Origin: an uncultured Acidobacteriaceae bacterium
GTDB lineage: Bacteria; Acidobacteriota; Terriglobia; Terriglobales; Acidobacteriaceae
NCBI GenBank assembly: GCA_963793845.1
Contig: CAWCBG010000002.1
Location: forward strand, 743,562-807,561
Direction: 5' to 3'
DNA length: 64,000 nucleotides
Part shown: piece by piece, positions 14,289 through 16,414 of the stretch
Position numbering within the stretch: the stretch's first letter is position 1
Layout of the letters: each line of letters opens with the position of its first letter
Program-made: the position numbers and the translations under genes
The notes under the pieces: generated by a model
Databases searched by the model: none
Seen by the model: only the letters and a program-made list of their open reading frames with translations
Told to the model about the DNA's origin: nothing

Positions 14289-14409
14289 CGCTCAGTCCAA
14301 AAGGGCGACCTAATAGAATCGCAAGACGCGGCGAATAAAAGGCGAATATGCTATTATCTACGCTCAGAAGAGCGACCGAATGAGGGAATCAGGTTGAGTA
14401 GTGATCTCT

Positions 14410-15542
14410 ATGCGCAACCAAGGGTTCTTTGACGAGTCGAGCGAACAGTCCCGTATCAAGGCGACGATTGTCAGCGATTATTTCTGGGCGTGGGCAAAGG
14501 TCATCTTGTCATCGTGACGAAGTGAGGCGGCCGTATCGCATACATTGATCTCTTCGCCGGTCCGGGAAGATACAGGGACGGCACCAAATCCACCCCTTTA
14601 TTAGTACTGGAACGCGCAATAGCCGATGTGGACATGCGCGAGCACCTTGTCACACTATTCAATGACGCTGCCGTGGAGAACTCTCAAGCATTAGAGAAAG
14701 ATATCCAAGCGCTACCTGATATCACAAAGCTAAAATACAAGCCCCAGGTCGCAACCCAAGAAGTCGGCGATGAGATTGTCAAGATGTTTGAGCAAATGAA
14801 TCTGGTTCCTACTTTTTTCTTTGTAGATCCTTGGGGATACAAAGGCCTCTCATTGGGACTAATTAACTCTGTCTTGAAGAATTGGGGCTGTGATTGCGTT
14901 TTCTTTTTCAATTACAACCGGATCAACATGGGTCTCGGAAACGACGCCGTAGAAGAACACATGAATGTGCTGTTCGGAGATGAGCGAGCCAATGAACTGC
15001 GAGAGAAGCTGGAGCTTCTACCATCTCGCGAGCGTGAAGCCGCTATTGTCGAAGCGCTAACTGCCGCATTGCGCGAGTTGGGAGCAAACTATGTGCTGCC
15101 CTTCTGTTTTAAGGATGAAAAGGGCAGCCGAACTACCCACCACCTTATATTCGCAACCAAGCATCCGCGCGGCTACCGCATCATGAAAGAAATAATGGCG
15201 AAACAGAGTTCGGAAGGCCCCCAAGGAGTAGCATCTTTCGGATATTGCCCCGCATCGGCGATTCATCCATTGCTTTTCGAACTCAACCGGCCTCTTGATG
15301 ATTTGGAGGGAATGCTTCTAGGCGAATATGAGGGACTAACTCTGACAACAGCCGAACTCTATGATCGCCATAACGTCGGACATCCATACACGATGAAGAA
15401 CTACAAGGACGTTCTCATCAGCATGGAGGAGCGCGGCCTCATTAAGGCTGATCCGCCACGTGAATCGCGGCGTAAGGGAACCTTTGCAGACAAGGTGCGT
15501 GTAATGTTTCCGAAGAATCAACAAGAAAAGCATCCGGCATGA
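14410..15542 (+). pseudogene. three-Cys-motif partner protein TcmP (TIGR04474-like), reading frame broken at 14505-14530
   Basis: ATG 14410 gives MRNQGFFDESSEQSRIKATIVSDYFWAWAKVILSS then a stop. The frame of ORF 14628..15542 extends upstream as (TGA 14523)GGRIAYIDLFAGPGRYRDGTKSTPLLVLERAI. Low GC. ATGA overlap with the next gene. Confidence 0.7.
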
Positions 15543-16318
15543 GCGCGAACAGCAAGATCGAATGGACGGATGCGACATGGAACCCGGTTCGGGGGTGCAC
15601 CAAAATCAGCCCCGGCTGCACCCATTGCTACGCGGAAGTATTTGCTGAGCGATTTCGCGGAGTAAAGGGCCATCCATACGAACAAGGCTTTGACCTCCGT
15701 CTCGTTCCGGAAAAACTGAACGAGCCTTTCAAATGGCGAGCGCCGAGACGGGTGTTCGTTAACTCGATGAGTGATTTGTTCCATGAAGGGGTTCCTGACG
15801 ATTACATTGCGTCCGTCGTGGACGTAATGGTCCAGGCCGACTGGCACACATATCAGGTCTTGACCAAACGATCTGCTCGCATGAGTGAGTTGCTGAAAAC
15901 ACGTCTGAGGTTCGCTGCGGCGAAACCCCATATCTGGTGGGGTGTTAGCGTTGAGAATAAGAAGCACGGTCTGCCTAGAATTGAGAACCTTCGCTCTGCC
16001 CCCGCAGCCGTACGGTTTCTTTCGATCGAGCCATTGTTAGAGGACTTAGGAACCGTTAACTTCTCAGGCATCCACTGGGTCATCGTCGGTGGTGAGAGTG
16101 GGTTTGGTGCCAGGTCCATGCCACGGCAATGGGTTGTCTCCATTCGCAGCCAGTGTCGCCAATATGGTGTTCCCTTCTTCTTCAAGCAATGGGGCGGTAG
16201 GCGAAAAAAAGAAGCTGGGAGATTGTTAGACGGCCGAACCTATGATGAGATGCCCGATGTCGTGCTCCACGATAATGGCAACGCTGCAGGCTCTCTCATG
16301 CAGCAGCAAATCCGATAA
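15539..16318 (+). CDS. phage Gp37/Gp68-family three-Cys protein (PF07505 / DUF5131)
   Basis: [67 protein letters not shown] and PFFFKQWGG are all motifs I associate with DUF5131. Confidence 0.8.
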   Translation: [259 protein letters not shown]

Positions 16319-16414
16319 GCCGGTAGCTGCTGATGCTGGCTAACTGCAGGTCTCGGCTCCGCCGCTGGCCCAGGATGCCACCGCGATTCGTTGGAGTTTT
16401 GGGATCGTGGAGCG

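Follow-up and report, generated by a model that had tools for sequence, protein, structure and literature searches.

A mobile TcmP and DUF5131 gene cassette of a catalogued candidate defence type behind rpoD in an acidobacterial genome

[quoted passage not shown] The pairing itself is what defines TIGR04474, a definition that carries no assigned function, and at the family level nothing distinguishes that partner pair from the one described here. PADLOC-DB holds pairs of this kind as PDC-M30 and PDC-M41, the PDC entries being candidates nominated through "guilt by embedding" and experimentally unvalidated. In the 64-kb stretch of DNA from a soil acidobacterium that we analysed (the window), two adjacent genes match both PDC-M30 models (A, TcmP, E 1.7e-22; B, DUF5131, E 1.7e-105) in the same two-gene adjacency; the acidobacterial TcmP falls among the distant members of the PDC-M30A models, and the window copy is disrupted. 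The DUF5131 protein matches PDC-M41B about as well as PDC-M30B (both about E 1e-105) and also matches phrog_2045, and short TcmP partners in sister loci, which lack the winged-helix (wHTH) domain, match PDC-M41A. Judged by these profiles, the cassette is of the TcmP plus DUF5131 kind already catalogued as a candidate phage-defence system, and the preliminary description of this DNA went too far in proposing an undescribed one. Its statement that neither family has an experimentally assigned function agrees with the searchable literature, where the family identifiers and related terms returned no functional study of TcmP or DUF5131. As a genomic instance the locus is ordinary, another copy of a catalogued cassette and possibly broken in this assembly.

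To our knowledge, an anti-phage role has been established by experiment for no radical-SAM effectors other than the prokaryotic viperins (pVips). They carry the canonical CX3CX2C motif, produce ddh-nucleotides that terminate chains and work without a methyltransferase partner. Their likeness to the present pair is that of a radical-SAM-superfamily enzyme in defence contexts, and homology of pVips to TcmP or DUF5131 was not detected.

The cassette occupies positions 14410-16318 of the window (Table 1), from the ATG of tcmP to the end of the DUF5131 gene. It lies, as first described, behind the terminator-like hairpin of rpoD (14266-14280 in a terminator scan, with a T-run after it) and stops 96 nt short of the stop codon of a convergent TonB-family gene; its two genes overlap by the ATGA at 15539-15542, the coupling reported earlier, and the peptide strings quoted for the two reading frames, C-x6-C-x2-C among them, are all present. 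In a closely related strain (L001, below) the rpoD orthologue is intact, at 562 aa with Sigma70 r1-r4 domains, and the TonB-family protein has a TonB_C domain. The low GC content noted at the outset is confirmed: GC is 51.4% in the cassette where the window averages 59.5% (SD 2.0, 1.9-kb windows), the lowest of any stretch of its size in the whole 64 kb, with values of 44-55% over 14.2-16.3 kb and 58-66% to both sides, and GC3 is 52.5% and 59.6% in its genes against 70-83% in rpoD, dnaG, tonB and their neighbours. A search of the flanks for insertion scars found no direct or inverted repeats at the cassette ends; the 64-kb window holds no tRNA gene, the interval 12-18 kb has no Rfam match, no sigma-70-like promoter was found on the coding strand, and the compact two-gene unit contains no integrase gene. 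Upstream of tcmP lies a copy of a TTCGC-N6-TTCGC element. In 7 independent loci this element precedes the first gene of the cassette by 2-70 nt, and its specific pattern has 10 matches in 2.79 Mb against an expectation of 0.016. It may serve as an operator or for recognition.

Table 1. Features of the cassette and its flanks, in window coordinates.
Feature	Position	Strand	Basis
rpoD, primary sigma-70, left core gene at the cassette flank	12536..14225	+	translation
rpoD 3' region with terminator-like hairpin, left junction of the cassette	14226..14281	+	terminator scan
Shared mobile segment: upstream region, tcmP, DUF5131 gene, about 50 nt of 3' tail	14282..16372	+	
Copy of the TTCGC-N6-TTCGC element, TTCGCCTTTTATTCGC	14331..14346	-	sole match in the window
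tcmP N-terminal fragment, MRNQGFFDESSEQSRIKATIVSDYFWAWAKVILSS*	14410..14517	+	part of the TIGR04474 match
tcmP lesion cluster	14513..14525	+	three-way comparison with intact L001 and L002
tcmP remainder in another frame: methyltransferase core and C-terminal GMT-like wHTH (predicted)	14526..15542	+	translation, TIGR04474
DUF5131 / phage Gp37/Gp68 family gene, 259 aa	15539..16318	+	PF07505, E 3e-101
TonB-family gene, right core gene at the flank, convergent with the cassette	16415..17311	-	ORF

A strain 99% identical to that of the window carries the cassette intact (L001) and served as the reference for comparison, with L002 as a second intact comparator. Across the shared 2.09-kb segment the window differs from L001 by 3 substitutions where the flanks predict 22.2 (Poisson P = 5e-7), and none of the 3 is synonymous; in the host genes of the same two strains, 127 synonymous changes stand beside 34 non-synonymous ones. 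L001 and L002 are identical across the segment, and all 8 differences between them fall in the adjoining rpoD 3' stretch, where the window departs from L001 by 12 substitutions and 1 indel in 54 nt. Hypervariable from strain to strain, this stretch forms the left junction of the cassette. Close homologues of the cassette (65-92% identity) sit in unrelated loci. Because its composition is atypical (GC and GC3 alike), because it occupies other loci in other genomes and because its divergence lies far below that of its flanks, the cassette is foreign and mobile, in line with the horizontal acquisition proposed earlier, and it has spread recently between strains. Comparison of the rpoD-tonB junction among relatives, suggested as a check, was anchored on tonB in 80 species-representative genomes and 80 metagenome contigs. 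The dagk-tonB order is kept in these 160 related loci, with rpoD never within 6-7 kb and the tonB orthologues adjoining neither rpoD nor the cassette, and no empty rpoD-tonB junction was found among them for comparison.

The window itself has no intact tcmP reading frame, the two parts of the gene lying in different frames. Relative to L001 and L002, where the gene encodes 377 aa, a G is missing at 14513, A is replaced by C at 14518 and C by T at 14523, the last of these turning CGA (Arg) into TGA at 14523-14525, 9 nt from the deletion. We first read the frameshift as a plain sequencing error, a reading that had to be qualified once the adjacent change was found: with the new TGA beside the deletion, adding back the G at 14513 alone leaves the frame closed. 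Because tcmP carries both a frameshift and a nonsense change, the window copy of the cassette may be inactive. In the stronger form of this reading, which we regard as a serious prospect though one that falls somewhat short of even, what is left here is a cassette in decay, with tcmP a true pseudogene and the pair non-functional regardless of what the family does elsewhere. Frameshift, nonsense change and missense change crowd together in a segment otherwise nearly identical to L001 and L002; the substitutions of the assembly look genuine, given the synonymous and non-synonymous counts above and the lack of a second nonsense change; and the ATGA overlap couples translation of DUF5131 to that of tcmP. 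Yet single-base indels also affect the essential genes rpoD (a 1-nt insertion near 13567, by alignment) and dnaG (1 nt), among about 13 indels in 20.8 kb, so that the indels of the window assembly are unreliable and assembly error is possible for the tcmP lesions as well; the 3 changes within 11 nt may be one local consensus error, and the gene is intact in two other samples of the same species. Neither the TonB protein of the window nor its truncated TcmP call has an exact-match record.

Regardless of the state of this copy, the partnership recurs widely. Wherever an IMG/VR locus contains both genes (28 loci), they are direct neighbours, whatever their orientation. At the same time, DUF5131 often stands alone, which tells against the explanation favoured below: 52 of the 80 IMG/VR loci with DUF5131 are solo and 28 have an adjacent TcmP, and among GenBank phage records, where DUF5131 occurs in 181 and TcmP-like genes in 9, most phage DUF5131 genes have no TcmP. 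The label "phage-related" given to the cassette thus fits DUF5131 in the main. In other Acidobacteria the pair is found at other loci, often near restriction-modification (R-M), Shedu, Wadjet, toxin-antitoxin or IS genes. Among the recorded neighbourhoods of the pair, one contains Shedu SduA_C, Dcm, Vsr and a resolvase, another a type I R-M system together with Nmad2, and others a zeta toxin with JetABC-like genes, ImmA/IrrE, MPN and PIN genes, or Fic/MazE and VapBC toxin-antitoxin pairs and IS21, IS110 and IS200 elements. In the temperate Gordonia phage Angelique the pair sits in the gap between integrase and repressor, and in S. meliloti it lies next to the Hna defence gene (PMC12445080). 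Housekeeping genes are the only neighbours in 3 of about 11 contexts (the window, L174 and L182). An association with phage and defence neighbourhoods, anticipated in the preliminary description, is apparent in that the pair recurs next to genes of defence, of toxin-antitoxin pairs and of mobile elements, as well as in the integrase-repressor region of a temperate phage.

Both family assignments made earlier by eye are confirmed by profile searches. The frame-corrected TcmP matches TIGR04474 at 214.5 bits (cut-off 53, E 2.5e-63) over positions 1-262 of 263, and the DUF5131 protein matches PF07505 at 338.5 bits (gathering threshold 28.9) over all 243 positions (1-243). The TcmP profile spans 4,379 clusters at 50% identity, and PF22560 matches TcmP residues 279-348. 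Three motifs, DLFAGPGRY (motif I, the G-loop), FND (for the acidic residue after beta-2) and VDPWGYKG (motif IV), are invariant in 71 close homologues, and motifs I (D-x-F/Y-A-G-x-G) and IV (DP-x-G) are kept in members of 18-29% identity; these are putative catalytic methyltransferase motifs. In Foldseek, the AF2 model of an 83%-identical protein (P0001, pLDDT 79) has only class I methyltransferases as its top matches, led by Trm1 (3axs, E 7.5e-6) and RlmJ (4blv, E 2e-5), both with probability 1.00, and with Bud23, CmoA and Hen1 among its other structural matches. By its predicted structure, TcmP is a Rossmann-fold class I methyltransferase, the fold foreseen for it, nearest to nucleic-acid amino-methyltransferases, and its closest structural relatives act on RNA, not DNA. 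Trm1 is the tRNA m2,2G26 methyltransferase and RlmJ the 23S rRNA m6A2030 methyltransferase. Motif IV reads DPFG in Trm1 and (D/N/S)PP(Y/F/W) in amino-methyltransferases generally, and in TcmP motif I precedes a DPxG-type motif IV. The likeness is one of structure: Trm1 and RlmJ have no detectable sequence similarity to TcmP, searches of PDB sequences with TcmP and with DUF5131, by single sequence and by profile, gave no match, and no methyltransferase family was found for TcmP in Pfam at E <= 10. TcmP also differs from both in its long N-terminal helix and its helical insertion, to which this subtype adds a C-terminal wHTH.

The DUF5131 protein carries CX6CX2C (C20-x6-C27-x2-C30), VIVGGESG and FFFKQWGG; across 57 homologues C20, C27 and the GGES of the second string do not vary, and the conservation of C30 is at least 90%. 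L001 and L002 encode an identical protein, and a dN of 0.066 with saturated synonymous sites means that it is under very strong constraint, its protein-level conservation being on a par with sigma-70 and unusual for a defence gene. The cysteine motif differs from the CX3CX2C canonical for radical SAM enzymes, and Pfam PF04055 (Radical_SAM) matches none of the 57 members at E <= 10. TIGR04471, the A protein of the radical SAM mobile pair TIGR04471/TIGR04470, aligns with DUF5131 over about 200 residues (76 bits, E 2e-21), far below its cut-off of 355. The AF2 model has a pLDDT of 68, with an alternating beta/alpha core at residues 72-216 modelled at good pLDDT and the cysteine loop modelled poorly, and this moderate-confidence model has no PDB match in Foldseek below E = 0.01; TIM barrels appear at E 0.01-0.03, phage "radical SAM" proteins at about 0.01, and spore photoproduct lyase is the best radical-SAM match in the PDB (E = 0.03, TM 0.39), a likeness that is not significant. 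The radical-SAM-like fold that had been suggested is thus unconvincing from the model. RadicalSAM.org and SFLD nonetheless place DUF5131 in the radical-SAM subgroup Megacluster-5-2, beside spore photoproduct lyase in 5-3 of the same megacluster (PMC9477430). In Halopiger, TcmP adjoins SplB-like radical-SAM genes of the PA0069/Rv2578c type in place of DUF5131, and hhalign of DUF5131 against these neighbours was insignificant.

Overall, the explanation that we favour, and to which as a whole we give about even credence, is that of a mobile cassette lodged at a hotspot formed by the rpoD 3' end, whose two proteins would both use S-adenosylmethionine on nucleic acid, together adding or processing a base modification by which DNA is marked or told apart. 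DUF5131 would be the core enzyme, an Fe-S protein of the radical-SAM superfamily in the clade of spore photoproduct lyase, so that DNA would be its likeliest substrate. TcmP would be the accessory enzyme, a Trm1/RlmJ-like methyltransferase targeting an exocyclic amino group via its DPxG pocket and, in this subtype, also carrying a winged-helix DNA-binding domain. Either the host or the mobile element would thereby gain an advantage over invading DNA. We infer the radical chemistry of DUF5131, the substrate, the cooperation of the two enzymes and the defence role; the earlier proposal of a part in modification or defence is likewise conjectural. A bolder version, which we hold only tentatively and think rather unlikely, is a SAM-driven system of a new class, in which the pair would write or police a new DNA base modification to tell self from invader, with TTCGC-N6-TTCGC as its own control or recognition element and with spread by recombination into hotspots where core genes, rpoD for one, have their 3' ends. 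If our favoured explanation is right, the pair would join the viperins as a second way to immunity through radical-SAM chemistry, possibly with a new DNA modification. The locus offers an intact natural allele from the same species (L001) and mutable methyltransferase motifs, and the conserved 16-nt element and natural variants with a dead TcmP and a live DUF5131 are further handles for study.

Such variants also bear on how the two proteins might divide the work. In a second lineage with DUF5131 behind rpoD (L174), the DP of motif IV is missing from TcmP, whose gene some strains have in split form, yet DUF5131 is conserved, with intact copies on more than 70 contigs; joint action of the two proteins is therefore not a necessity. 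This weighs against a restriction-modification-like logic, in which TcmP would methylate host DNA and DUF5131 would damage unmethylated invader DNA by radical chemistry. A methyltransferase and a second enzyme tightly linked in defence islands would suit such a system, as would the solo DUF5131 genes, found mainly in phages, where immunity is unneeded; and since some R-M systems autoregulate through a recognition site, the short upstream repeat could serve in that way. But Pfam, NCBIfam and PADLOC profiles assign a nuclease domain to neither protein, and with TcmP lost in the L174 lineage and disrupted beside an intact DUF5131 in the window, it can be argued that DUF5131 without TcmP is not toxic to its host. 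We consider this alternative improbable, and to the same degree an RNA-modification pair, in which TcmP would methylate a tRNA or rRNA base and DUF5131 would elaborate it or act beside it, with an effect on translation. There is precedent in wyosine synthesis, where the radical-SAM enzyme TYW1 acts after Trm5; TcmP finds its best structural matches among methyltransferases of tRNA and rRNA; its wHTH is dispensable, to judge from the M41A-type partners; and the constraint on DUF5131 is housekeeping-like. Nonetheless, a housekeeping enzyme of RNA modification would not be expected to be mobile, foreign in composition and patchily distributed, with defence or mobile-element neighbours, this subtype of TcmP has a DNA-binding wHTH, and RadicalSAM.org clusters DUF5131 with a DNA enzyme, spore photoproduct lyase. 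A selfish addiction module of the toxin-antitoxin kind, maintained by post-segregational killing with no defence benefit, would agree with a compact unit free of an integrase, with the toxin-antitoxin pairs and IS elements that often adjoin it and with its recent spread between strains, but is very improbable for two large, strongly conserved enzymes neither of which has a toxin-like feature, and of which TcmP can decay while DUF5131 persists.

Homology between the window and L174 stops just past the T-run of the rpoD hairpin. Vertical co-descent of DUF5131 with rpoD between the two is unsupported, the pS being 0.85 for DUF5131 and 0.43 for rpoD; the synonymous sites of DUF5131 are saturated here, as they are for any two cassettes. 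Co-descent is further weakened by the partner TcmP, which is of a different subtype in the L174 lineage.

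The TcmP and DUF5131 block that the preliminary description had placed behind rpoD is confirmed: two co-oriented genes, overlapping as ATGA, lie in the interval between the rpoD stop (14225) and the convergent TonB-family stop (16415). The sequence features on which that description relied were all found again, including the gene layout, the hairpin behind rpoD and, in DUF5131, the motif C20-x6-C27-x2-C30 and the strings VIVGGESG and FFFKQWGG. HMM searches agree with the family assignments: tcmP, with its two frames joined, scores 214.5 bits on TIGR04474 (cut-off 53), with PF22560 (GMT-like wHTH) at the TcmP C-terminus, and DUF5131 matches PF07505 over its full length (E 3e-101). 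At the same time, both window proteins match the PADLOC phage-defense candidates PDC-M30/PDC-M41, unvalidated nominees of a 'guilt by embedding' approach. Since the family is already catalogued, the window pair is not an undescribed system, for which it had been named the strongest candidate; it adds one more member to a catalogued, uncharacterized family, for which we found no functional study of either TcmP or DUF5131 in the literature searched. The pair is most likely a SAM-dependent nucleic-acid modification module, one that would combine radical-SAM with amino-methyltransferase chemistry and would serve defense or self-marking.

The exact DUF5131 protein also occurs on two metagenome contigs of the same species, the ENA contig L001 (1.78 Mb) and the short Logan contig L002; a genome scan for relatives picked out MAGs of Acidobacteriaceae or Korobacteraceae. 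Across window positions 5540-26315, L001 is 98.97% identical, differing by 201 substitutions and 13 single-base indels. The substitutions are real strain divergence, because synonymous changes heavily outnumber non-synonymous ones in host genes (127 versus 34). L001 has intact dnaG (619 aa), rpoD (562 aa) and tcmP (377 aa), in each of which the window has a 1-nt indel (at 11771, at 13567 in region 2, the most conserved part of rpoD, and at 14513, respectively). Those in the essential genes rpoD and dnaG are best read as assembly errors, and further single-base indels lie at 18544, 21097, 21259/21262 and 26251. The assembly thus seems to contain indel errors, with about 13 in 20.8 kb, and any ORF disruption in the window must therefore be treated with caution. 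The tcmP lesion comprises three differences from L001 and L002 within 11 nt, namely a G missing at 14513, A>C at 14518 and C>T at 14523, the last turning the downstream-frame codon CGA into TGA; only one other position differs in the remainder of the 2.09-kb segment. Putting back the G leaves the ORF closed. The whole cluster may be one local error of the consensus or, alternatively, a real inactivating mutation of a complex kind.

Horizontal acquisition, as originally proposed, is well supported by foreign composition, by lower divergence than the flanks and by the varied loci occupied elsewhere. The low G+C reported for the block holds: it has 51.4% where 1.9-kb windows average 59.5% (SD 2.0), and no other stretch of that length in the 64 kb is lower, with GC3 of 52-60% against 70-83% in adjoining host genes, and homologous cassettes share the dip relative to their hosts at three of the four other acidobacterial loci examined. 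The cassette segment differs from L001 by 3 substitutions, none synonymous, where 22.2 are predicted from the flanks (Poisson P = 5e-7), and the three samples (window, L001 and L002) share an identical DUF5131. The cassette is therefore younger than its flanks: it was exchanged between strains, or swept through them, once the flanks had already diverged, a result that supports horizontal mobility and sets the boundaries of the unit. The stretch to its left is hypervariable, with 12 substitutions relative to L001, and contains all eight L001-L002 differences, the three samples being otherwise near-identical; it may be a recombination junction.

Among the matches listed from soil and peat metagenomes, TcmP has over 5,660 close homologues and DUF5131 over 8,000, and a TcmP profile search returned 4,379 clusters at 50% identity. 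Context varies between genomes. The cassette adjoins an IS200 transposase and glmS in Edaphobacter, and Shedu SduA_C, Dcm, Vsr and a resolvase in a Terracidiphilus MAG; others adjoin Fic/MazE, IS21 and a DDE transposase, or VapBC, or IS110, and one immediately precedes a type I R-M system, with Nmad2 nearby. Plasmid cassettes adjoin zeta toxin and JetABC-like genes, or ImmA/IrrE, MPN and PIN genes, and that of Gordonia phage Angelique sits between integrase and immunity repressor. In S. meliloti the pair adjoins the Hna defense gene (PMC12445080). Three contexts are housekeeping-only: the window, L174 and L182.

Comparison of the rpoD-tonB junction in relatives, suggested in the preliminary description, yielded no empty site among 160 tonB-anchored related loci, where neither rpoD nor the cassette ever adjoins tonB. 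A second lineage (L174-L181), abundant in peat and wood metagenomes, also has DUF5131 directly behind rpoD. Only one of the 160 tonB-anchored loci (L056) has a DUF5131 74% identical to the window's, about 2.5 kb upstream of dagk and convergent with a TcmP-like gene just 30% identical to the window TcmP. The L174 lineage has an rpoD 89.5% (protein) and 84% (DNA) identical to that of L001, a DUF5131 sharing 91% protein identity with the window's, and a 283-aa TcmP of PDC-M41A type, a different subtype that lacks the wHTH. Its outer flanks are unlike the window's, and homology ends right after the terminator T-run. Synonymous divergence between the two lineages is higher in DUF5131 (pS 0.85, saturated) than in rpoD (pS 0.43), and simple co-descent of the two genes is therefore not supported. 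The 3' end of the acetyl-CoA carboxylase (ACC) carboxyltransferase gene is a second recurrent site, occupied in three lineages with differing TcmP subtypes and orientations, and looks like a second hotspot. Thus, these loci suggest that cassettes occupy hotspots at core-gene 3' ends, which would permit their exchange via recombination between flanks.

Coordinates of the cassette features and of homologous loci
Feature	Locus	Position	Strand	Remarks
Hypervariable stretch	window	14228-14281		54 nt, rpoD stop to cassette, including terminator stem
Terminator-like hairpin	window	14266-14280		3' of rpoD
Low-divergence cassette segment	window	14282-16372
Imperfect direct repeat	window	14287-14314; 14358-14381
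TTCGC-N6-TTCGC	window	14331-14346	-
ATGA overlap	window	15539-15542
DUF5131 gene	window	15539-16318	+	259 aa
rpoD	L174-L181	4292-5977
TcmP-like gene	L174-L181	6139-6990
DUF5131 gene	L174-L181	7001-7798
ACC carboxyltransferase-linked cassettes	L008; L182; L267	6338-9949; 3874-7235; 4169-9627
DUF5131 locus	L056	1467-3283
TcmP with radical-SAM genes	L171	3317-7107		Halopiger xanaduensis pHALXA02
TTCGC-N6-TTCGC	L006; L008; L056; L174; L184; L267	6794; 7974; 3268; 6097; 4072; 4145

At seven independent loci a TTCGC-N6-TTCGC pattern whose spacer is rich in T precedes the first cassette gene by 2-70 nt; both orientations occur, and cassettes of both TcmP subtypes (with and without wHTH) have it. The specific pattern occurs 10 times in 2.79 Mb against 0.016 expected, and could be an operator or recognition site. 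The window element is also flanked, upstream of tcmP, by an imperfect direct repeat, CGCTCAG..AAGRGCGACCKAAT, seen upstream of none of the other cassettes.

The expected Rossmann methyltransferase fold is predicted for TcmP: a model built on the homologue P0001 (83% identical to the window TcmP; pLDDT 79) is a class I methyltransferase, with Trm1 (E 7.5e-6) and RlmJ (E 2e-5) as best matches. Close homologues share motif I (DLFAGPGRY), FND and motif IV (VDPWGYKG) without variation, and D-x-F/Y-A-G-x-G and DP-x-G are kept even in members at 18-29% identity. The catalytic loop of Trm1 is DPFG, and that of amino-methyltransferases generally is (D/N/S)PP(Y/F/W). Because DP-x-G resembles these loops, TcmP is probably an exocyclic-amine methyltransferase. 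The DUF5131 model is weaker (pLDDT 68), with a beta/alpha core and a poorly defined Cys loop; its PDB matches are non-significant TIM barrels, the best radical-SAM match being spore photoproduct lyase (E 0.03), and in a viral structure library it matches, beyond family members, 'radical SAM' phage proteins weakly. Independent support for a radical-SAM affiliation comes from curation of DUF5131 as a subgroup next to spore photoproduct lyase (PMC9477430) and from a TIGR04471 match that falls below threshold. The protein evolves extremely slowly (dN 0.066 at saturated dS).

The partnership is asymmetric. In IMG/VR, a TcmP gene abuts DUF5131, in any orientation, at 28 of 80 DUF5131 loci, and the other 52, mostly longer DUF5131 variants, have no TcmP within 5 kb; 181 GenBank phage records carry DUF5131 and 9 carry TcmP. 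Every TcmP examined adjoins DUF5131 or another radical-SAM gene. In the L174 lineage TcmP decays, having lost the motif IV DP (SINLG) and being broken into two ORFs in some strains, while DUF5131 stays conserved. These patterns suggest that DUF5131 is the core enzyme and TcmP an accessory. DUF5131 is also unlikely to be toxic to a host that lacks TcmP, which weakens a model wherein the pair operates like a restriction-modification system. On pHALXA02 of the archaeon Halopiger xanaduensis, TcmP adjoins not DUF5131 but two radical-SAM genes of the PA0069/Rv2578c/'mobile pair B' type, and TcmP may therefore partner with a wider SplB-like radical-SAM clade.
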